Below, piece by piece: positions 3,133 to 58,889 of a stretch of DNA of 64,000 bases; the first letter of the stretch is position 1; each line of letters begins with the position of its first letter. The stretch lies in assembly GCF_964194155.1 (NCBI RefSeq), contig NC_135901.1:27218001-27282000 (forward strand), in the 5' to 3' direction. The translations under genes and the position numbers were made by a program. The notes beneath the pieces are model-generated. The model was not told where the DNA came from, made no database searches, and saw only the letters and a list, made by a program, of their open reading frames with translations. The stretch is from Cetorhinus maximus (Eukaryota).

Positions 3133-3807
3133 TCACTTGTGAACTCGCTGGTGTCTCAGCTGGTGGGCTAACTGAGTGAATGTCTTTCCACACTCAGAGC
3201 AGATGAATGGCCTCTCCCCAGTGTGAACTCGCTGATGTGTCTGCATGTGGGATAACTGAGTGAATCCCTTACCACAATCGGAGCAGGTGAATGGCCACTC
3301 TCCATTGTGAACTTGCTGATGTGTCCGCAGGTAGGATGACCGAGTGAAACCCTTCCCACACTCAGAGCATGTGAATGGCCTCACCCCTGTGTGAACTCGC
3401 TGATGCCTCAGCAGGTTGGATGAATCAGTGAATCCCTTCCCACACACAGAGCAGGTGAATGGCCGCTCCCCGGTGTGAACTCGCTGGTGTGTCTGGAGGT
3501 GGGATAACTGAGTGAATCCCTTCCCACACTCAGAGCAGGTGAATGGCCATTCTCCGCTGTGAACTTGTTGGTGTGTCAACAGGTGTGAAGACCGAGTGAA
3601 TCCCTTCCCACACTCAATGCAGGTGAATGGCCTCTCCCCAGTGTGAACTCGCTGGTGTGCCAGCAGATCGGATGGATTAGTGAATCCCTTCCCACAGTCA
3701 AAGCAGCTGAACGGCCTCTCCCCAGTGTGATAGCGACGATGAGTTTCCAGCTCAGATGGGGACCGGAATCCCTTCCCACAATCCCCACATTTCCACCGTT
3801 TCTCCGT
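3133..3807 (-). CDS. C2H2 zinc-finger array A, 8 fingers; the family start ATG is ACG here (possible pseudogene)
   Basis: Frame is open from accACGgag (3807) through [10 protein letters not shown]... to HQRVHK-TGA; the ORF track shows only the part from a TTG at 3579. Confidence 0.7.
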
Positions 3808-5103
3808 GGTGCGGGTGTCCTTGTGTATCTCCAGGTTTGACGATCAGTTGGAGTCGCGTTCACACACTGTAACTGGTGAAAACTCTTTCCACAGTCAGCG
3901 CACTGGAACACTTTCACTCGGGTGTGTGTGTCTCAGGTTTTTTCCAGTCACACTGATGTTTGAAAACTTCAGAAGGTGACAGAACAGAAAAACCTTTCTC
4001 CTTCGAGATTCAAAGGCCAATGACATTCAGCTCCCGATGAATTGAGTGCCGCTGGCAGGATTGATGTGATGTTTGGTTTCAGATTTCTGTCTGCAAATCC
4101 TCCCCTTCTAATATCCTGTAAAAGGAGTTTGCAAAGGTCATCACTGTCAAAGTGCAGGATAGAAATTCAGAACAGATTGTTCTAGATTCTATGGAACATT
4201 ATTTCCTCTGTCATTCCCCAAAAGTCTTCCCAGACACACTCCCTGAATTCTCACTTTGCTGTGCCTAATATACATCCTCCCAATTCTCCTGAAGGTGCTG
4301 ATTCATGCTGACCGACAGACCCATGCTCACCGCAACTATCCCAGACACAGAAGCCTGAAAATCTCGATGCAAGCTGCTAGTCTAAATGTATATTTACATA
4401 TTTAGTGGACTAAACGATGTGTATAATCTACAGCATTCTATTCCTTGATTAGAGGTACAGGGGTGGGGTAAGGAAGAAACTTATTTAGGCAGTGAGTAGT
4501 CATGACCTGGAACTCACTGCCTACAAGGGTAGTGGAAGCAGAGACGACTAATAATTTCAAAAGAAAATTGGATGGGCACTTGAATAAAATAAATTTGCAG
4601 TGTAATTATGGAGTGGGGGGGGGGGGGGGGTGGGCGGAGAGAGAGAGGGGGAATGGGACTGACTGGATTTCTCAACAGAGAGTTGGCATCGATTCGAGTT
4701 GTCAAATGGATTCCTGTGTCGTGATGACTCCATGACTGGAAATATATAACGTAGCTAATATATTACAAAACTAGAAATGATAATAAATGTACTTTATTAG
4801 ATAACCAGAACAATATATTATGTATTTACCTGCCTCATATATTACTAGCCTAGAAATAAAATAAATATAACTAGAGAACCATAAATAACATATCTAATAT
4901 GTACAAAATAACAAACTAGACATATCTCTGTCCTATATTAATTTACTGTCCCCTTAAATGTCAGCCATCTCCTGGGGAAACCACCCCTTTAATTATGAAC
5001 ATTAGGAAAGAGACCATCCTTTTAGCCAGACAAATAAGTGTGTCAAGCTGAGGGAGCAAAGGATGTCAATGTCTTTAAGAGAGAGAGAGAGACCTGGGCC
5101 AAC

Positions 5104-5277
5104 CTTTCTAGAGTCTGCACCCTCCCTGGATTCACTTCCTTTCCCTTCAGTTCCTGCAAGTCAACAATTTGCCCCCAGAATGAGAAAAGAAATGGAAAGG
5201 GGGAGAAAAGAAAGTGTTTTACTCACAGATGCTGGACACAGGAGGAGGTTTTCGTCTGCGTGAAGCTCAATCTTCAT
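5104..5277 (-). other. Predicted exon 1 (ATG 5277 to 5227) and 50-nt mini-exon 2 (5153-5104) of gene A
   Basis: Donor GTGAGT at 5226; pyrimidine tract plus TTGCAG acceptor at 5154; donor AAG/GTTGGC at 5103; next acceptor TTTACAG at 4116. Confidence 0.65.
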
Positions 5278-5279
5278 TC

Positions 5280-5590
5280 ACACAAAGCCCGTGCTCTGAT
5301 TGGCTGGAGGACCAGGGTCCTTCCGGTCCACCAACTCTTCCCATTGGTCAACACCTCAGCATGACGGGAAGGAGCGGGTTCTCCCCCGCACATGCGCAGC
5401 TTCCCCTCTCCCGAGTTCTCCGAGCGGCTTCTCGCTTTGGCCGGAGCCGTCAGCCGGTTGGCTGGAAACCTTGGCTCGAGGAGGTGGAGGGGGAACAATG
5501 GGTGGGGGAGGGGGAACAATGGTTGGGGGCGGGGCTCCCGTGTCCGCGCGCCTGGCCTGCGGTCTTTCATCTCTCTCCATTGGTCAATCC
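5280..5590. promoter_or_regulatory. CpG-rich promoter (arm type A) of gene A
   Basis: CCAAT boxes, CCGGAAG ETS-like core, NRF1-like CGCACATGCGCA (~5387) and GGGGCGGGG GC box; paralogous to the other promoters in the window. Confidence 0.7.
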
Positions 5591-5682
5591 CTGTTCGACC
5601 AGACGAGGTAGCGGAGCCCAAATTATTTCCAAACTACTAGTTTATGTAGTCATAAACTACATAAGATAATATTACTGGTCCC

Positions 5683-6279: not shown

Positions 6280-7070
6280 GGGATCAAAGCAATTAGAATT
6301 GTCTGTTCTGAATTTCTAGGCCTTGTGTTGTCATGTCCACTCGCTCCCTGAATAAAATTCTCCCTCACTCCCCCCACCACCATATCTCTAATAAGTCTGA
6401 CATTACTGAATATTGCACACAATTTTAGTCCAGTAATATAGACAGATATATGGCGACCAGCCTGCATGAAGATTTTAGGGTCCCTGTGTGCAGGACAGCA
6501 AGTGCTGAGCATGGATCTGTCGATCAGCATAAACCGACACGTTCAGGACAATTGGGAGGGTGAATATCAGGTGTACAGAGTGAGAACAGAGGGAGAGTGT
6601 GTGGGATGGAGATTTACAACTTTTGGGGAATGAGAGAGAAAATAATATTCCAGAAAAACTCAAATTGTTCTGAATTTCGACCCTGCACTGACTTTTGTAA
6701 ACTCCTTTTACAGGATATTAGAAGAGAATTTAAAGACAGAAATCTCAAACCAAACATCACGTCAGAATCTGACAAGTCACTCAATTCATCAGGACCTGAA
6801 TATCATTGGTCTTTGAATATAGAAGGAGAAATGTTTCCCTGTTCTGTCCACATCAAAAGATTTTAAACGTCAGTGTGACTGGAAAAGCATTGAGATGCAG
6901 ACATCTGAGTGAGTGGGTTCCAGCGCACTAACTGCAAAAAGAGCTTTAATCAGTTACACAGCCCAAAATAAATCATACCATTCACAGCAGGGAGAGACTG
7001 TACACGTGTTCTGTGTGTGGATGAGGCTTCAACTGATATTCAAACCTCAATAGTCACAAGGGCACCCAAC

Positions 7071-15701: not shown

Positions 15702-16149
15702 AGATGTTGGACACAGGAAGAAGTTTTAGTCTGTGTGAAGATCAATCTTCATTCACACAAAACCCGCGCTCTGATTGGCTGGAGGACCAGAGTCCTTCCG
15801 GTCCTCCAACTTCCCATTGGTCAATCCCTCAGCATGACGGGAAGGGGCGGGCTCTCTCTCGCACATGCGCAGCTTCCCCTCTCTCGAGCTCTCCGAGCGG
15901 CTTCTTGCTCTGGCCGGAGCCGGTTGCCTGCAAACCTCGGCTCGTGGTGGTTGAGGGGGAGGGGGAGCAATGGGTGGGGGCGGGGCTCCCGCGTCCGCGC
16001 GCCTGGCCTGCAGACTGGAACCCGAGGACGTCACCGCAGAGCAGAGTGATTCCTATTGGCTGATTCAGGCAGGGTTCCATTGTGGACGTCACAATGCGGA
16101 AGTTGGACAATGAGCTTCAGACTAAAACTTCCTCCTCTGGGCAACATCT
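15702..16149. promoter_or_regulatory. Bidirectional promoter plus first exons, arm A (-) / arm B (+), between genes C and D
   Basis: Outward-facing donors at 15701 (GTGAGT) and 16150 (GTGAGG); CCAAT, ETS-like, NRF1-like and GC-box motifs; two GACGTCA CRE-like sites. Confidence 0.75.
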
Positions 16150-16478
16150 GTGAGGAAATCAATGTTTCCCCCTTTCCATTTCTTTTCTCATTCTGGGGGC
16201 ATATTGTTGACTCGCAGGAACTGAAGGGAAAGGAAGTAAATCCAGGGAGGGTGCAGACTCTGGAAAGGTTGGCCCAGGTCTCTCTCTCTCTTAAAGACAT
16301 TGTGACACTCAAGTGAGAGTGTTTCCAGTGCACTGACTCTGGAAAGAGCTTTAACCAGTTACACAGCCTGAAAAAACATCACACCATTCACAACAGGGAG
16401 AGACTGTACATGTGTTGTGTGTGTGGATGAGGCTTCAACTGATTGTCAAAGCTGGAGAGACCCAAGGACACTCACAAC

Positions 16479-19129: not shown

Positions 19130-19610
19130 CATGTGGCAGATAGACCAATGGGAACAACTGGAGGACCGAAAGGACTCTGGTCCTCCAGCCAATCAGAGCT
19201 TCCCCCATTGTCTGAATGCAGAAGTTGGACAATGAGTTTGTTCACCTGCTCATTGCTGCCCAGTAAAGCTGCTGCTCCTCTCTCTCTGAATGAAGGTTGA
19301 GCTTCACACAGACTAAAACTTCCTCTTGAGTCCAATGTCTGCGAATAAAACACCTTCTTCCCCCCCTCTGCCCCTTTCCATTTATTTTCTCATTCTGGGG
19401 GGAAATTGTTGACTTGCAGGAACTGAAGGGAAAGGAAGTGAATCCAGGGAGGATGCAGACTCTGGAAAGGTTGGCCCAGGTCTCTCTCTCTCTTGACATC
19501 CTTTGCTCCCTCAGCTTGACACATTTATTTGTCTGGCTAAAAGGATGGTCTCTTTCCTAATGTTCACAATTAAAGGGGTGGTTTCTCCAGGAGGTGGCTG
19601 ACATTCAGGT
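19130..19610 (+). pseudogene. Orphan promoter arm, exon 1 and mini-exon (19420-19469) with no finger exon downstream
   Basis: Paralogous to 27460-27870; exon-1 donor decayed to GCGAAT; followed only by repeats. Confidence 0.6.
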
Positions 19611-26425: not shown

Positions 26426-26855
26426 TCATTAGACATATCTTTGCCCTCTAGCACTGTGTTCTCCAGGGGACAGAATTCTTATGAAATAAAATAAGGGACC
26501 CTTCAGACGTGGGGCTGGAGGCATGCGTGGGGGTGGGATGCTTGTGACCATGAGAGCAAGTTGACGGGGGGCTGGGTTTCAATATGAGAGAGAGGATGGG
26601 AAAGAGGGGTCCTGATACAATAATAGTGGGAGGGGTGGGGTTTAAAATCAACTAAAACTTACAACTTATCTTGTTCAGTCATAGCATCATCATTCCTCTG
26701 CTGGCTGATCATTCACTTGCCGTCCCACTCGAATCACTCAAACTCACACTGAAGACTCCCGGGATCAGTTTCCCACAGGCTGTCCTAGAAATACAGGACA
26801 AAAGGTAAAATAAGGAGCAATCCCTTAAAATACAGGACAGTTAAAAACCCTGATA

Positions 26856-27872
26856 TTGTCCCCTTAAATGTCAGCCATCTCCTGGGGAAACCACCCCTTT
26901 AATTGTGAACATTAGGAAAGAGACCATCCTTTTAGCCAGACAAATAAATGTGTCAAGCTGAGGGAGCAAAGGATGTCAATGTCTTTAAAGGAGAGAGAGA
27001 CCTGGGCCAACCTTTCCAGAGTCTGCACCCTCCCTGGATTCACTTCCTTTCCCTTCAGTTCCTGCAAGTCAACAATTTCCCCCCAGAATGAGAAAAGAAA
27101 TGGAAAGGGGAGAAAAGAAAGTGTTTTACTCGCAGATGTTGGACACAGGAGGAAGTTTCAGTCTGAATCTCATTGTCCAACTTCCGCATTGTGACGTCCA
27201 CAATGGAACCCTGCCTGAATCAGCCAATAGGAATCACTCTGCTCCGCGATGACGTTCTCAGGTGCCAGTCCGCAGGCCAGGCGCGCGGACACGGGAGCCC
27301 CGCCCCTACCCATTGTTCCCCCTCCATCTACACCTCCTCGAGCCAAGGTTTCCATGCAACCGGCTGACGGCTCCGGCCAGAGCGAGAAGCCGTTCGGAGA
27401 GCTCGCGAGAGGCGAAGCTGCGCATGTGCGGGGGAGAGCCCGCCCCTTCCCTTCATGTTGAAGGACTGACCAATGCGAAGTGTTGGAGGACCGGAAGGAC
27501 GCTGGTCTTCCAGCCAATCAGAGCGCGGACTTTGTGTGAATGAAGATTGAGGTTCACACAGACTAAAACTTCCTCCTGTGTCCAACATCTGTGAGTAAAA
27601 CACTTTCTTTTCTCCCCCTTTCCATTTCTTTTCTCATTCTGGGGGGAAATTGTTGACTTGCAGGAACTGAAGGGAAAGGAAGTGAATCCAGGGAGGGTGC
27701 AGACTCTGGAAAGGTTGGCCCAGGTCTCTCTCTCTCTCTCTGAAAGACATTGACATCCTTTGCTCCCTCAGCTTGACACATTTATTTGTCTGGCTAAAGG
27801 ATGGTCTCTTTCCTAATGTTCACAATTAAAGGGGTGGTTTCCCCAGGAGATGGCTGACATTTAAGGGGACAG
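26856..27872. repeat. ~300-bp near-perfect inverted repeat (26856-27163 / 27563-27872) around a promoter
   Basis: Direct comparison of the arms; they are the exon 1 / mini-exon / intron starts of divergent genes E and F. Confidence 0.9.
27134..27590. promoter_or_regulatory. Bidirectional promoter plus first exons, arm B (-) / arm A (+), between genes E and F
   Basis: Inverted paralogue of 15702-16149; donors GCGAGT (27133, minus) and GTGAGT (27591, plus). Confidence 0.75.
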
Positions 27873-27924
27873 TAAATTAATACAGGACTGATATATGTCT
27901 AGTGTTGTTATATCTTATATGTAC

Positions 27925-28185
27925 ACTGAGATGAGGAGAAATGTCCTCATCCAGAGAGTGGTGAGCCTGTGGAATTCGTTACCATGGAAAGTAATTGAGG
28001 CCAAAACATTGTGTGTTTTCAAGAAGCTGTTAGATGTAGCTCTTGGGGCAAAACAGATCAAAGGATATGGGGAGAAAGCGGGAGCAAGCTGTTGAGTTGG
28101 ATGATCAGCCAAGATCATAATGAATGGCGGAACAGGCTCGAAGGGCTGAATGGCCTATTCTTGCTCCTAGTTTCTATGTTTCTAT
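27925..28185 (+). mobile_element. CR1-type LINE extreme 3' end
   Basis: RRNVLIQRVVSLWNSLP motif and tail ending TTCTATGTTTCTA. Confidence 0.7.
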
Positions 28186-28907
28186 TAGATATATTTATTA
28201 TTATTTCTAGTGTTCTGACATAGTACTGTAGCTACATTATAAATCTCCAGCCCTAGATTTGTTAAGACACAGAAGAAGACTAATGGGCACCTTGAGTCCG
28301 TATCAACTCTCTGTAGAGCAATCCAGTCAGTCCTATTCCCCCTCTGTATCCCTATACTGCTGCAAGTCTATTTCCTTCAGGTGCCTATCGAATTTCAGTT
28401 TGAAATCATTGGTCTTCCACCTGCCTTACAAGTTGCGAGTTCCAAATAATGACCACTCACTGTAATAAACTACAGTTGTGAACATTTCGAATCATGGAGT
28501 TCATTAAAACTAGAATTGTGTGTTCTAAATTTCTATCCTGTACTGACAGTGATGGCTTTTGTAATCTCTTTCTACAGAACATCAGAAGTTGAGGATGTGA
28601 AGACAGGAATTTCACAACAAACATCACATCAAGATCTGACAGACTCACTCAAATCATCAGGAGCTGAATATCATCGAACTTTGAATCTAGCTGGAGAAAT
28701 GTTTCTGTGTTCTGCCTGCTTCAAAAGATTTTAAGCGTCAAGGTGACTGGAAATGCACCGAGACGCACACACCCGAGTGAGGGTGTTCCTGTGCACTGAC
28801 TTGTGGAACAAGCTTTAAACAGTTATGCAGTCTGAAAAAACATCACAGCATTCACATTGAGGAGAGACATTATACATGTTCTGTGTGAGGACAAGGACAC
28901 CTGCACC

Positions 28908-29918
28908 ATGGAGAAACCGTGGAAATGTGGGGACTGTGGGAAGGGATTTCGGGCCCCCTCTGATCTGGAGATTCATCGACGCCGTCACACTGGGGAGAGG
29001 CCGTTCACCTGCTCCGTGTGCAAGAAGGGATTCAGTCAATCATCCAGCCTGCTGCAGCACCATGTCACTCACACCAATGAGAGACCTTTTAAATGCTCTG
29101 ACTGTGGGAGTGCCTTCAAAAGGTCTCATGATCTGACGGTCCACCAGCACATTCACACTGAGGAGAGATCATTCAGCTGCTCTCACTGTGGGAAGGCATT
29201 TGGAACATCCTCCAAACTGCTGATACACCAGCGAGTTCACTCTGGGGATAGGCCATTCACCTGCTCCATTTGTAGAAAGGGATTCACTCAGTCAAGCACC
29301 CTGTGGACACACAAGCGAGTTCATACCGGGCAGAAGCCGTTCACCTGCTCTGAGTGTGGGAAGGGATTCAGTGATTCATCACATCTGCAGAGACACTGGC
29401 GAGTACATTCTGGGGAGCGGCCGTTCTCCTGCTCTGAATGTGGAAAGGGATTTACTCAGATATCCAACCTGCAGATCCACCAGCGAGTTCACTCTGGGGA
29501 GAGGCCATTCACGTGCTCTGTGTGTGGAAAGAGATTCACTCAGTTATCCAACCTGCAGATCCACCAGCGAGTTCACACCGGGGAGAGGCCATTCACCTGC
29601 TGTGTGTGTGGAAAGGGATTCAGTCATTCCTACACACTGCAGAAACACAAGTGGGATCACACTGGGGAGAAGCCATTCACCTGCTCTGAGTGTGGGAAGG
29701 GATTCAGCGATTCATCCACACTGCAAACACATAAGCGAGTTCACACAGGGGAGAGGCCATTCACTTGCTCCTTGTGTGAGAAGAGATTCACTCAGTTATC
29801 CAACCTGCTGACACACCAGCGAGTTCACACTGGAGAGAGACCGTTCACCTGCTCTGAGTGTGGAAAGAGATTCACTCAGTCATCGCACCTGCAGAGACAC
29901 CAGCGAGTTGACAGGTGA
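28908..29918 (+). CDS. C2H2 zinc-finger protein F, 12 fingers (last lacks the final His)
   Basis: accATGg [10 protein letters not shown]; acceptor at 28577; upstream exons ending 27590 and at 27664-27713. Confidence 0.88.
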   Translation: MEKPWKCGDCGKGFRAPSDLEIHRRRHTGERPFTCSVCKKGFSQSSSLLQHHVTHTNERPFKCSDCGSAFKRSHDLTVHQHIHTEERSFSCSHCGKAFGTSSKLLIHQRVHSGDRPFTCSICRKGFTQSSTLWTHKRVHTGQKPFTCSECGKGFSDSSHLQRHWRVHSGERPFSCSECGKGFTQISNLQIHQRVHSGERPFTCSVCGKRFTQLSNLQIHQRVHTGERPFTCCVCGKGFSHSYTLQKHKWDHTGEKPFTCSECGKGFSDSSTLQTHKRVHTGERPFTCSLCEKRFTQLSNLLTHQRVHTGERPFTCSECGKRFTQSSHLQRHQRVDR

Positions 29919-37804: not shown

Positions 37805-39205
37805 TCAGTCCTTGATGTGATTAACAGCAGCAATAACAGCACAATCCAACTCCTGTAATCCCTTGTGAACTCGCTGGTGCCTCAGCAGGCTGGATAAATG
37901 AGTGAATCCCTTCCCACACATAGAGCAGTTGAACGGCCTCTCCCCGGTGTGAACTCGCTGGTGTGTCAGCAGGGTGGATGAAACAGTAAATCCCTTCCCA
38001 CACTCGGAACAGGTGAAGGGTCTCTCCCCGGTATGAACTGGCTTGTGTTTTTTAAGGTCGGATGAATTACTGAATCCTTTCCCACACTTGAAGCAGGTGA
38101 ATGGCCTCTCCCCGGTGTGAACTCTCTGGTGTCTCAGCATATTGGATGAATCAGTGAATCCCATCCCACACTCGGAGCAGGTGAACGGCCTCTCCCCGGT
38201 GTGAACTCGCTGGTGTGTCTGCAGGTGGGTTGAATTACTGAATCCCTTCCCACAATCGATGCAGGTGAACAGCCTCTCCCCAGTGTGAACTCTCTGATGC
38301 CTCAGCAGGCTGGATGAATCACTGAATCCTTTCCCACATTCGGAGCAGGAGAACGGCCTCTCTCTGGTGTGAATTCGCTGGTGTGTCAGCAGAGCGGATG
38401 AATGAGTGAATCCCTTCCTACACTCGGGGCAGGTAAATGGCCTCTCCCCGATGTGAACTCGCTGGTGTGTCAGCAGGGTGGATGAAACAGTAAATCCCTT
38501 CCCACACTCGGAACAAGTGAAGGGTCTCTCCCCGGTATGAACTGGCTTGTGTTTTTTAAGGTCGGATGAATTACTGAATCCTTTCCCACACTTGAAGCAG
38601 GTGAATGGCCTCTCCCCGGTGTGAACTCTCTGGTGTCTCAGCATATTGGATGAATCAGTGAATCCCATCCCACACTCGGAGCAGGTGAACGGCCTCTCCC
38701 CGGTGTGAACTCGCTGGTGTGTCTGCAGGTGGGTTGAATTACTGAATCCCTTCCCACAATCGATGCAGGTGAACAGCCTCTCCCCAGTGTGAACTCTCTG
38801 ATGCCTCAGCAGGCTGGATGAATCACTGAATCCTTTCCCACATTCGGAGCAGGAGAACGGCCTCTCTCTGGTGTGAATTCGCTGGTGTGTCAGCAGAGCG
38901 GATGAATGAGTGAATCCCTTCCTACACTCGGGGCAGGTAAATGGCCTCTCCCCGATGTGAACTCGCTGGTGTCTCAGCAGGTTGGATGAATCACTGAATC
39001 CCTTCCCACACTCGGAGCAGGAGAACGGCCTCTCCCCGGTGTGAACTTGCTGGTGTCTCAGTAGCGTAGATGAATGAGTGAATCCCTTCCCACACACAGA
39101 GCAGGTGATTGGCCTCTCCCCAGTGTGACTGCGTCGATGAATCTCCAACTCAGATCGGGATTTGAATCCCTTCCCACAGTCCCCACATTTCCACGGTTTC
39201 TCCAT
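37805..39205 (-). CDS. C2H2 zinc-finger protein G, 16 fingers, with C-terminal stop-loss extension
   Basis: accATGg [10 protein letters not shown] at 39205; sixteen fingers; acceptor near 39562; exon-1 donor at 40723. Confidence 0.88.
37948..38971. repeat. 504-bp (6-finger) tandem duplication inside gene G
   Basis: Sequence from 37951 recurs at 38455; only one difference noticed by eye (~38012 vs ~38516). Confidence 0.92.
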
Positions 39206-40723: not shown

Positions 40724-41270
40724 AGATGTTGGACACAGGAGGAAATTTTAGTCTGTGTGAAGCTCAATCTTCATTCACACAAGGCCCGCGCTCTGATTGC
40801 TGGAGGACCAGAGTCCTTCCGGTCCTCCAACGCTCCCCATTGGTCAATCTTCCGCATTAAGACAATGGGGCTGTGGAAAACTTCCTGGGCCCGGCAGACC
40901 CTTTGTCCCGATGATGAGCTGAGCGAAAACAGAATTACCTGGAAAAACTCAGCAGGTCTGGCAGCATCGGCGGAGAAGAAAAGAGTTGACGTTTCGAGTC
41001 CTCATGACCCTTCAACAAAACTAAGATGAGCTGAACGGTTGGCCAATGGGAAACGACAGGCTCCGCACATGCGCAGCTTCCCCTCTCCCTTGGACATGCG
41101 CAATGCCGGGCCGCCCGCCCGCGCGGCGGATAGAGAGGTTTCCCCAGCGCGGGGGATTGTGGGCACTGAAGCCGCCATTACTCATTCGGATCCCAGTCTC
41201 CAAACTCCTGAGACTGGGATGGAAAGTGGGGGTGAGGGGCGCAGTGACCCCACCCTGACACAAATTACAT
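40724..41270. promoter_or_regulatory. Bidirectional promoter plus first exons, arm A (-) / arm C (+)
   Basis: Donors GTGAGT at 40723 (minus) and 41271 (plus); NRF1-like CATGCGCA twice; CCAAT; CpG-rich. Confidence 0.7.
40923..41024 (-). mobile_element. Short Penelope pseudo-LTR insertion within a promoter
   Basis: 10-bp TSD GATGAGCTGA at 40913 and 41025; homologous to 37480-37590 and 50938-51035. Confidence 0.75.
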
Positions 41271-47414: not shown

Positions 47415-47837
47415 ACCCACTTGTACTTTGTGTCAGGGTGGGGTCACTGCGCCCCCCACCCCCACTTTCCATCCCAGTCCCAGGAGTTTGGAGACTGGGC
47501 TCCGGATGAGTAATGGCGGCCGTAACTCCCAAAAAAAACCTCGCGCACCACTCTATCCGCCACGCGGGTGGGCAGCCCGGGACTGCGCATGTCCAAGGGA
47601 GAGAGGAAGCTGCGCGTGTGCAGTGAATGGCGTTGCCCATTGGCCATCCGCTCATTCCGTCTTGAGAGTCAGAGGGTCTCCCTCGCGCTGCCCCATTGTC
47701 TTCATGCGAGAGATTGACCAATGGGAAAAGTTGGAGGACCGGAAGGACTCTGGTCCTCCAACCAATCAGAGCGCGTCTTTGCGTGAATGAAGATTGAGCT
47801 TCACACAGACTAAAACTTCCTCCTGTGTCCAATATCT
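47415..47837. promoter_or_regulatory. Bidirectional promoter plus first exons, arm C (-) / arm A (+)
   Basis: Inverted paralogue of 40724-41270 without the Penelope insert; donor GTGAGT at 47838. Confidence 0.7.
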
Positions 47838-55182: not shown

Positions 55183-55980
55183 GTGAGGAAATCAATGTTT
55201 CCCCCTTTCCATTTCTTTTCTCATTCTGGGGGGAAATTGTTGACTTGCAGGAACTGAAGGGAAAGGAAGTGAATCCAGGGAGGGTGCAGACTCTGGAAAG
55301 GTTGGCCCAGGTCTCTCCCTCTCTCTCTCTCTTAAAGACATTGACATCCTTTGCTCCCTCAGATTGACACATTTATTTGTCTGGCTAAAAGGATGGTCTC
55401 TTTCCTAATGTTCACAATTAAAGGGGTGGTTTCCCCAGGAGATGGTTGACATTGAAGGGGACAACTTCAGGGTGATTTACTGTCCTATATTTTCAGAGAT
55501 TGCTCCTTATTTTACCTTTTGTCCCGTATTTCTAGGCCAGCCTGTGGGAAACTGATCCCAGGAGTCTCCAGGGTGAGTTTGAGTGATTTGAGTGGGACGG
55601 CAAGTGGGTGAGTCGGCCAGCAGAGAGATGATGATGTTGTGACTGAACAAGATAAGTTGTAAGTTTTAGTTGGTTTTAAATCCTACCCTCCCACTATTAT
55701 TGTCTCAAGACCCCTCCTCCCCATCACCTCTCATGTTGAAACACAAACACCCGCCCTCAACCCTCTCTCATGGTCACCAGCATTCCACCACCACCCTCCC
55801 CTGGTCCCAAGGTTGAAGTGTCCCTTCTTTTATTTCATAAGAGTGCTGCCCCTGGACAATACAGTAATAGAAAACTTTGAGATGTCTAATGTTGTGATAG
55901 GGGACATTTTAGCATGTTATTTATGGTTCTGTAGTTAAGTTCATTTATTCTTGTTTCTAGTTTTGCTGAAAAAAGAGACA

Positions 55981-56157: not shown

Positions 56158-57122
56158 TGTCTTTTTTCAGCAATATTCAAGTCTTGTACTACCAAATGAC
56201 TATTTCTAGTTTTGTAATATAGTACTGCAACTATGTTATTTATTTCTGGTCATATATTCATTAAAAACACAGAAGGAGCCAATTTGGCAACTCGAGCCCA
56301 TGCCAACTCTCTGTGGAGCAATCCAATCAGTCCCATTCCCCCTCTATATCCCCATTCCTGTGCTAGCTTATTTCCTTCAAGCGCCCTTCCAATTTCATTT
56401 TGAAATCATTGATCGTCTCTGCTTTCATCACCCTCGTAGGCAGTGAGTTCCAGGTCATCACAACTCGCTGCTGAAATACAATTCTCCCTCACACCCCATG
56501 TGTCTCTGATTATGTAATGGAGTACTGTACATTTTAAGTACAGTATGATTGGGTGTATACTGGGTAGATTAGATTTAGAATGGAGAGAGTGTAGCAGAGT
56601 GAGAATACAGGGACTGTGTGTGGGATGGAGATTTACAGTTTTTGGGGAACAAGAGAGGGTACAGTGTGCTATAAGAGTGTGCTGTAGAAATTAGAATTGT
56701 CTGTTCTGAATTTATACTCTGGACTGATAATAATGATTTTTTTAAACTCCTTTTACAGGATATTATAAGTAGAGGATTTGCAGACAGAAATCTCAAACCA
56801 AACTCCACGTCATGATCTGACAGAATCACTCGATTCTCTGGGACCTGAATATTATTGGCCTTTGAATCTAGAAGGAGAAATGTTTGTCTGTTCTGTCTTC
56901 TTCAAAAGGTTTTAAGCCTCAGTGTGACTGGAAAAGCACCGAGACACACACACCCGAGTGAGTGTTTCCAGTGCACTGACTTTGGAAAGAGCTTTAACCA
57001 GTTAAACAGCCTGAAAGAAACATCGCACCATTCACTGTGAGGAGAGACATTATACACGTTCTGTGTGTGGACAAGGCTGCAACTGATTGTCGGACCTGGA
57101 GATACACAAGGACACCCGCACC

Positions 57123-58889
57123 ATGGAGAAACCGTGGAGATGTGGGGACTGTGGGAAGGGATTCAAATACCCATCTCAGCTGGAAGCTCATCGACGCAGT
57201 CACACTGGGGAAAGGCCATTCATCTGTTCTGTGTGTGGGAAGGGATTCACTCATTCATCCACCCTGCGGAGGCACCAGCAAATTCACACTGGGAAGTGGC
57301 CATTTGCCTGCTCTGAGTGTGGGAACAGATTCAGACAGTTATCCAGCCTGCAGTCACACCAGCGATTTCACACTGGGGAGAAGATGCCATTCGTCTGCTC
57401 TGTGTGTGCGAAAGGATTCACCCACTCATCCAACCTGTTGAAACACCAGCGAATTCACACTGGGGAGAGGCCGTTCACCTGCTCTGAATGTGGGAAGGGA
57501 TTCAGTAATTCATCCGACCTGCAGAAACACAAGCGAGTTCACACCGGGGAGAGGCCGTTCTCCTGCTATGAGTGTGGGAAGGGATTCAGTAACTCGTTCA
57601 ACCTTCTGCGACACCAGCGAGTACACACTGGGGCGAGGCCATTCGCCTGCTCCGAGTGTGGGAAGGGATTCAGTCAGTTATCCAACCTGCAGACACACGA
57701 GCGAGTTCACACCAGGGAGAGGCCGTTCACCTCTGAGTGTGGGAAGAGATTCCGTAATTCATCAGACCTGCAGAAACACAAGCGAGTTCACACTGGGGAG
57801 AGGCCGTTCACCTGTTCTGAATGTGGGAAGGGATTCAGTAACTCATCCGACCTTCAGAAACACATGCGAGTTCACACAGAAGAGAGGCCGTTAACCTGCT
57901 CTGAGTGTGGGAAGGGATTCAATCATTCATCAGACCTGCAGAGACACATGCGTGTTCACACTGGGGAGAGGCCATTCACCTGCTCTGAGTGTGGGAAGGG
58001 ATTCAGTCAGTTATCCAACCTGCAGACACACCAGCGAATTCACACCAGGGAAAGGCTGTTCACCTGCTCTGAGTGTGGAAAGGGATTCAGTGATTCATCA
58101 GACCTGCATATACACAAGGGAGTTCACACTGGGGAGAGGCCATTCACCTGCTTGCAGTGTGGGAAGGGATTCGTTGATTCATCAAACCTACTGCGACACC
58201 AGCGAGTTCACACTGGGGAGAGACCGTTCACCTGCTTGGATTGTAAGAAGGGATTCAGTCATTCATCCGACTTGCAGAAACACATGCGAGTTCACACTGG
58301 GGAGAGGCCATTCACCTGCTCTGAGTGTGGAAAGGGATTCACTCAGTTATCCAACCTGCGGACACACCAGCGAATTCACACCAGGGAGAAGCCGTTCACC
58401 TGCTCTGAGTGTGGGAAGGGTTTCAATGATTCATCAGACCTGCATAAGCACAAGGGAGTTCACACTGGGGAGAGGCCGTTCACCTGCTCTGACTGTGGGA
58501 AGGGTTTCAGTGATTCATCAGACCTGCAAAAACACAAGGGAGTTCACAATGGGGAGAGGCTGTTCTCCTGCTTTCAGTGTGGGAAGGGATTCAGTGATTC
58601 ATCCAACATGCTGCGACATGAACGAATTCACACTGGGGAGAGACCGTTCACCTGCTCTGATTGTGGAAAGGGATTCACACAGTCATCCGACCTGCAGAAA
58701 CACAAGCGGGTTCACACTGGGGAGAGGCCGTTCACCTGCTCTGAGTGTGGGAAAGGATTCACTCAGTTACCTAACCTGCGGACACACCAGCGAATTCACA
58801 CCAGGGAGAGGCCATTCACCTGCTCTGAGTGTGGGAAGGGATTCACACATTCACCCCACTTGCTAAGACACCAGCGAGTTCATAAGTGA
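57123..58889 (+). CDS. C2H2 zinc-finger protein K, 21 fingers (finger 8 lacks its first Cys)
   Basis: accATGg MEKPWRCGDC, 588-aa open array; acceptor at 56758. Confidence 0.9.
   Translation: MEKPWRCGDCGKGFKYPSQLEAHRRSHTGERPFICSVCGKGFTHSSTLRRHQQIHTGKWPFACSECGNRFRQLSSLQSHQRFHTGEKMPFVCSVCAKGFTHSSNLLKHQRIHTGERPFTCSECGKGFSNSSDLQKHKRVHTGERPFSCYECGKGFSNSFNLLRHQRVHTGARPFACSECGKGFSQLSNLQTHERVHTRERPFTSECGKRFRNSSDLQKHKRVHTGERPFTCSECGKGFSNSSDLQKHMRVHTEERPLTCSECGKGFNHSSDLQRHMRVHTGERPFTCSECGKGFSQLSNLQTHQRIHTRERLFTCSECGKGFSDSSDLHIHKGVHTGERPFTCLQCGKGFVDSSNLLRHQRVHTGERPFTCLDCKKGFSHSSDLQKHMRVHTGERPFTCSECGKGFTQLSNLRTHQRIHTREKPFTCSECGKGFNDSSDLHKHKGVHTGERPFTCSDCGKGFSDSSDLQKHKGVHNGERLFSCFQCGKGFSDSSNMLRHERIHTGERPFTCSDCGKGFTQSSDLQKHKRVHTGERPFTCSECGKGFTQLPNLRTHQRIHTRERPFTCSECGKGFTHSPHLLRHQRVHK

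Follow-up and report, generated by a model that had tools for sequence, protein, structure and literature searches.

The window analysed here is a stretch of 64,000 nucleotides (C24:27218001-27282000, positions below being counted from its first letter) in a shark genome of 4 Gb. It contains about ten C2H2 finger exons, with both strands represented, and head-to-head pairing is frequent among these zinc finger (ZNF) genes. One of them, gene A, lies on the minus strand, head-to-head with a plus-strand gene at 6714, with the segment 5683-6279 given as N. Its putative promoter region (5290-5680, minus strand) is CpG-rich and contains CCAAT boxes, with a GC content of 0.58 and a CpG observed/expected ratio of 0.70. 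Reading along the minus strand, the 3' end of a non-coding exon 1 (5227-5277) carries an upstream ATG in weak context. This is followed by intron 1 of 73 nt (5154-5226), a non-coding and optional mini-exon of 50 nt (5104-5153) that can also be seen as an extension of exon 1 to a second donor, and intron 2 (4116-5103). The finger exon opens with a 40-codon linker (3996-4115) that is untranslated in this class of genes, and that in gene A is interrupted by a TGA at 4081-4079 and a frameshift. Beyond the linker lie decayed C2H2 fingers (3808-3995), three in the family majority and partly deleted here, and then eight intact C2H2 fingers (3133-3807), all on the minus strand. Gene A has ACG where the family has the ATG of the finger frame. 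This ACG (3807-3805, minus strand) lies in an otherwise strong start context before the eight intact fingers, so that gene A could be either a pseudogene or a case of near-cognate initiation.

The preliminary description had proposed that an unannotated N-terminal segment of about 75 amino acids is encoded by exon 1, the mini-exon and the linker. Its coordinates are correct. ATG codons at 5277, 15752, 27540, 40774 and 47787 each lie 51 nt before a GTGAGT donor, and 50-nt blocks bounded by AG and GT are found at 5153, 16218, 19420, 27061, 27664 and 55251. The ninth codon is GAA in gene A (5253-5251), with the result that an upstream open reading frame (uORF) of 8 codons is read through, while it is TAA in the other four ATG copies; most exon-1 copies stop at this point. 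The joined frame of gene A is indeed 45 amino acids long, ending at the TGA in the linker. As a single module, however, the ATG and the mini-exon hold together in just two of the five ATG copies, gene A and the copy at 27540-27713 (plus strand). The latter has exon 1, intron and mini-exon complete and TAA at codon 9, and belongs to a gene with its finger exon acceptor at 28578, its ATG at 28908 and 11 fingers. The mini-exon is deleted behind the exon-1 copies with ATG at 15702-15752 (minus strand) and 47787-47837 (plus strand), and truncated behind that at 40724-40774 (minus strand). Conversely, three of the six mini-exons sit behind an arm-B exon 1 that lacks the ATG in question. These are found at 16218-16267 (plus strand; no ATG in the MKIE frame), within 27012-27165 (minus strand; an arm-B copy whose exon 1 ends in the arm-A manner, and thus a mosaic) and at 55251-55300 (plus strand), the last in a gene with its acceptor at 56759, its ATG at 57123 and 20 fingers. 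The mini-exon at 19420-19469 (plus strand) follows an exon-1 copy with an altered donor.

Splicing was assessed from four runs of contigs guessed to be RNA, from related organisms, aligned at 80% likeness and carrying no information on start site, strand or expression level. The exon-1 donor is used in contigs of two organisms, X1 and X3, and the mini-exon donor is joined to the finger exon (4112-5104) in one contig of each. That part of the proposed exon structure therefore stands. The mini-exon is also skipped, exon 1 being joined directly to the finger exon in several X1 and X3 contigs and in one from X9, and this joint leaves the claimed frame. Pieces from X1, X3 and X9 read unspliced through the 73-nt intron, and no joint between exon 1 and the mini-exon occurs among the 15 of 47 joints listed. 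Judging from these contigs, the mini-exon block may often be an extension of exon 1 to the second donor.

The extent of the family was sampled from the window, six 200-kb blocks of the cluster at 27-31 Mb, 40 loci of 10 kb chosen among matches to the 5' part of the finger exon, and 30 sister-class loci; about 1.26 Mb of the proximal cluster of about 4.3 Mb is covered. The 5' part of the finger exon is matched from 6 to 64 Mb of the 65-Mb contig C24, among the 150 scored of 5723 first-look candidates. The closest named proteins to these ZNFs are of shark origin. Between 2 and 65 Mb the contig appears to consist mostly of KRAB-less C2H2 genes, of at least three classes with differing 5' ends. 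Exon 1 and the mini-exon are present at 27-31 Mb, at several loci at 6-26 Mb, and on C25. By blastn, neither was matched in 29 of 30 loci (28 at 33-64 Mb together with L117 at 21 Mb), L114, with exon 1 only, being counted apart from these 29, and 18 sister-class loci were likewise without a match to exon 1 or the mini-exon. What the loci at 33-64 Mb, L117 and the sister-class loci have in common with the leader of these copies is a CCAAT-type promoter core only. Exon 1 and the mini-exon are thus restricted to part of the ZNF family, and their description as the leader of the whole family was too wide. A KRAB profile gave a single genome-wide match, off this contig, on C34. It lies at C34:9121534-9124644 (L221) and is possibly PRDM9.

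Several further features of the family were observed. In the cluster at 27-31 Mb, recent duplicate pairs group around 4-6% divergence, with distances of up to megabases between the two copies, which suggests a single burst, and several recent pairs have peaks of 15-30% divergence inside their finger arrays. Within the array of the gene at 39205, a block of six fingers is repeated exactly (37865-38935, minus strand). Two predicted histone proteins of another shark, P0025 and P0036, are fused to the linker; these are probably artefacts of the gene models, and hint at histone genes lying among the ZNF genes of that shark.

We turn to the finger exon. Seventy intact genes give a column-majority in which acceptor and finger start are in frame, 364 nt apart. 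This frame reads through the 40-codon linker and then through three decayed fingers, stops being present at codons 52, 56 and 109. The decayed fingers are real. In the frame of the live array they retain the C-x2-C...H spacing and linkers of the finger type, interrupted by stops and frameshifts. Where the preliminary description had the linker followed by fingers, it leads into these remnants and not into live fingers. In 120 of 163 genes the ATG of the live array lies in a strong context, ACCATGG. The linker recurs in the sister class, where an ATG stands at its codon 37 and one further finger is intact; this architecture resembles that of the annotated shark proteins P0004 and P0005. The sister-class linker contains stops in 11 of the 12 top loci. 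Of 21 distal copies, 18 have GTG at codon 37, and in the class found in the window this codon is mostly CTA or CTG. A predicted protein of another shark, P0002, ends at a point coinciding with the codon-56 stop. An ATG at linker codon 41, the start of the first decayed finger (the region of 3995), is present in 34 of the scored proximal copies and would open a second uORF of 11 codons.

Because the sister class starts earlier, at linker codon 37, it is likely that the start codon has retreated downstream and left the first fingers to decay. In an ancestor, translation would have begun closer to the 5' end of the finger exon, either at linker codon 37, which the sister class still uses, or at codon 41. 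Decay of this start and of the first fingers would have followed, the downstream ATG taking over. In the present genes ribosomes would mostly scan past the weak upstream ATG of exon 1, or reinitiate after its 8 codons.

We have compared the leader with the fingers for signs of coding selection. By codon position, exon 1 has 62/57/51 changes and the mini-exon 27/18/16, and so the excess at third positions that was sought is not found in either. Relative to the column-majority, pN/pS is 1.11 in exon 1, 1.11 in the mini-exon and 1.02 in the linker, while the decayed fingers have 0.83 and live fingers 0.44 and 0.65; the counts repeat shared variants, and off-frame and intron controls range from 0.50 to 1.59, so that p-values are overstated. 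The mini-exon, for which a dN/dS-type test had been suggested, thus displays no coding constraint. The decayed fingers retain a weak coding-like signal. The linker has 66 indels, of which 9 are multiples of three. The corresponding count is 12 of 145 for the decayed fingers and 1 of 1 for live fingers, a set that was picked for at least five fingers and whose indel count is biased by that choice.

The uORF fares no better. Its ATG, in a TGAATGA context in 74 of 93 copies, is kept in 84 copies of the module set and changed in 8 of 92 codons. Its stop is present in 77 of 90 and the T of the stop is changed in 11 of 90, where the exon-1 mean is 3.7% per site, and its pN/pS is 0.86 (p 0.53). Neither ATG nor stop is better kept than the neighbouring bases, and this removes the suggestion that the segment is retained as a micropeptide. 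The sequence MKIE occurs in 56 of 93 copies and is never joined to fingers, for which reasons a SUMO-like reading of it was set aside.

The alternative that survives best concerns the linker by itself. The 40-codon linker could be a fossil N-terminal peptide that ancestral elasmobranchs translated from an ATG in the finger exon, as skates perhaps still do. We regard this as possible, though the balance lies somewhat against it. Open homologues exist in the predicted skate proteins P0007, P0008 and P0022, but these are automatic models selected for being open, and by hand count 120 of 150 matches to the skate stretch contain stops. At the locus L205, on another contig, there is a methionine start at linker codon 4, and from residue 1 the product aligns without gaps with the skate stretch, with 33 of 77 residues identical. 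Against this, comparing the L205 linker with 16 cluster linkers gives pN/pS values of 0.67-2.5, against 1.09 among the cluster linkers, and coding constraint on the linker of this solitary gene was looked for and not found. The linker P0001 matched no Pfam family at E up to 1 and gave no usable hit in the ESM Atlas, and the linker alone found one match among 9 candidates in the protein collection. Even a coding linker would need no upstream exon.

Two observations accompany these comparisons. L205:2137-3522 (minus strand, on C13) contains a finger ORF of 462 amino acids whose start matches a predicted skate protein, and is a candidate for the least derived copy. Two of the predicted skate ZNFs have in common an N-terminal stretch with a PxVxL-like motif followed by basic residues (P0022 residues 17-21 and P0008 residues 31-35). 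PxVxL is an HP1-binding motif, and the skate stretch is possibly a real effector segment.

The block of exon 1 and mini-exon is nearly identical between paralogues, and the manner of this near-identity can be examined directly. Copies diverge from the majority by 1.4% in the mini-exon, by 2.3% in intron 1 and by 1.7% at the beginning of intron 2, and by as much as 12-14% in the leader of the finger exon. Aligning 88 copies reveals a smooth trough of divergence running from about -35 to +325 relative to the upstream ATG (approximately 4952-5311 on the minus strand in gene A), which is indifferent to splice sites. Within it the copies lie 1-4.5% from the column-majority regardless of exon borders. 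The tract adjoins the downstream side of the CpG island. It is itself CpG-poor (observed/expected 0.0-0.11), which lowers its mutation rate, a point that counts against conversion. The homogenised leader tract is real.

Its origin is best judged by comparing recent with distant paralogues. In 25 independent recent pairs, drawn from 93 genes, the divergence is 3.84% in a 150-nt core and 4.03% in the leader; most of these pairs are homologous on both flanks for kilobases, at about 5%. For 3822 distant pairs the values are 3.21% in the core and 19.3% in the leader. Distances in core and leader are uncorrelated (Mantel r 0.05 and p 0.26, on 92 of 97 genes). There are mosaics of arms A and B, in which arm-B copies have arm-A ends, one of them at 27061, and two polymorphic sites, each shared by both arms, display all four allele combinations. 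Because recent and distant pairs are alike in the core (3.8% vs 3.2%) while their leaders differ (4% vs 19%), and because of the arm A/B mosaics, the near-identity of the tract likely reflects gene conversion, in one sweep or ongoing, rather than selection. Singletons account for 94 of 166 minor alleles in the core, which fits one sweep as well as it fits ongoing conversion. Breaks near the CpG-island promoter would be repaired from non-allelic copies, and this would generate the tract. Taken together, we think it probable, with good though incomplete confidence, that the segment is an untranslated 5' leader containing three decayed fingers, whose exon-1/mini-exon block has been kept near-identical by ectopic gene conversion of about 350 bp.

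Could the 350-bp tract instead be kept by purifying selection on a shared regulatory element, acting as a downstream promoter or in splicing or translation control, including the uORF? We consider this unlikely. The position of the tract just downstream of the CpG island would suit such an element. So would the presence of the leader block at 80% or more in four other organisms, and the fact that intact genes are slightly closer to the majority than broken ones (1.6% vs 2.3%). Yet constraint in proportion would predict 23.7 core differences between the recent pairs, and 136 are seen. Moreover variation is seen in 109 of the 150 columns of the core, copies resemble each other as closely in introns as in exons, and bases that are nearly fixed among the paralogues are different, for two other organisms each, in nearly every one of the contigs listed (5237 and 5164 in X9 and X11; 5252 in X8 and X11). 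An Rfam search of 26700-28600 gave five weak matches, all far below the gathering threshold. Some regulatory constraint on the mini-exon block in particular is possible, given that two related organisms use its donor and four carry the block at 80% or more. For the tract as a whole, gene conversion remains our preferred explanation.

There remains the joined three-exon frame itself. Of 202 hits to the module, 93 span exon 1 through the mini-exon. Codon 9 in these is TAA in 71, TGA in 6, CAA in 6, GAA in 3, another codon in 4 and deleted in 3, and is thus a stop in 77 of the 93. Among 82 arm-A genes paired with their finger exon, the joined frame reaches the fingers in none; 67 stop within 8 codons, and the longest joined frame is 81 amino acids. 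A finger start could be recognised behind 167 of 210 finger-exon acceptors. Counted from the acceptor, it lies in frame in 38 of the 167, and the sequence between is open in none of them; the remainders modulo 3 of the distance are distributed 38/66/63. In gene A the linker is frameshifted and the distance is out of frame. The exact joining of phases to the finger frame is consequently a property of the column-majority only. Even the chain of features is readily obtained by chance, for in 571 of 3000 dinucleotide shuffles (19%) there is an ATG, 51 nt or more ahead of the donor, that lies in the linker frame with no more than one stop. As about 1.26 Mb of the proximal cluster of about 4.3 Mb was sampled, a rare open copy of the joined frame may exist there.

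That exon 1, mini-exon and linker once encoded a single N-terminal effector domain of about 75 amino acids, since lost in this clade or kept as a micropeptide, is accordingly very improbable: the majority phases do join, TAA may be derived, since four loci at 6-18 Mb have CAA at codon 9, and the joint of mini-exon and finger exon exists in two runs, but three of those four loci have a stop at codon 4, exon 1 also splices out of frame directly to the finger exon, no gene is open, codon bias is absent, a fifth or so of shuffles do as well, both upstream exons are missing from the distal and sister classes, and the peptide they would encode appears in none of the stretches printed for 17 of the 21 proteins matching the linker profile. 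We conclude that the leader encodes no hidden protein domain today, and a live effector or micropeptide segment within it is rejected. The idea of fossil coding sequence in the leader holds for the three decayed C2H2 fingers, which lie in the finger frame, and not for a three-exon N-terminal segment.

A hidden effector domain would have mattered, as none is described for the ZNF clusters of cartilaginous fish in the papers found, and the evidence is that there is none in the leader. If the family apparently consists of fingers only, then how, or whether, its members bring about repression becomes the question. The near-identity of a small exon across paralogues here probably signifies homogenisation and not function, and this is a trap for gene annotation. 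The comparison of recent with distant paralogues is directly repeatable in other shark assemblies. A broader scenario can be sketched, which we put forward as speculation more likely to be wrong than right. This would be a chromosome-scale shark ZNF family without an effector domain, undergoing serial retreat of its start codon. A conversion hotspot anchored at the promoter would have spread one 350-bp leader cassette through hundreds of paralogues far older than itself, so that these share their regulation as their fingers diversify, and the linker would be what is left of an elasmobranch N-terminal peptide that skates still translate.

It is instructive to set the family beside known systems. 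The parts of PMC8455134 and PMC10208646 that we saw contain no description of this cluster, and our literature search, in which most subscription journals and supplements lay outside the scope, found no paper on it and no effector domain for ZNF clusters of cartilaginous fish. Clusters of KRAB-ZNF genes have degenerate N-terminal fingers and head-to-head pairs. In the shark family the decayed fingers lie in an untranslated leader, and the one KRAB match is on another contig. As far as the accessible text of PMC11603059 describes them, the tetrapod KRAB-ZNF clusters are similar in being clustered, fast-duplicating C2H2 genes with all the fingers in one exon. The same text places the origin of KRAB-ZNF genes after the split from cartilaginous fish, and our single off-contig match is in line with this. 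In cyprinid fish, FiNZ is a conserved coding domain of 28 amino acids on its own exon in a ZNF family (PMC10547256, seen in part). On that description the FiNZ-ZNF genes are likewise a large lineage-specific tandem C2H2 family without KRAB, with a short upstream exon before a single finger exon. They differ, in a comparison made by description and not by consensus sequence, in that in the shark family stops close the upstream exons, which show no coding constraint, and the predicted proteins consist of fingers alone. The leader fails the tests for a coding N-terminal effector domain of the KRAB, FiNZ, SCAN, BTB or ZAD type, namely an open frame and purifying selection.

For the homogenised tract there are two useful parallels. 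Recombination at promoter-like features is known where PRDM9 is not directing it (PMC5519329, in the part available). Such promoter-directed hotspots, applied here by analogy, would explain exchange next to the CpG island, although the shark trough lies just downstream of the island and not on it. The silkmoth chorion locus, as outlined in the portion of PMC4639761 that we saw, shares head-to-head pairs, short shared promoters and concerted evolution by gene conversion. It differs in the part that is homogenised: in the shark family this is the non-coding leader next to the promoter, and the finger arrays remain diverse.
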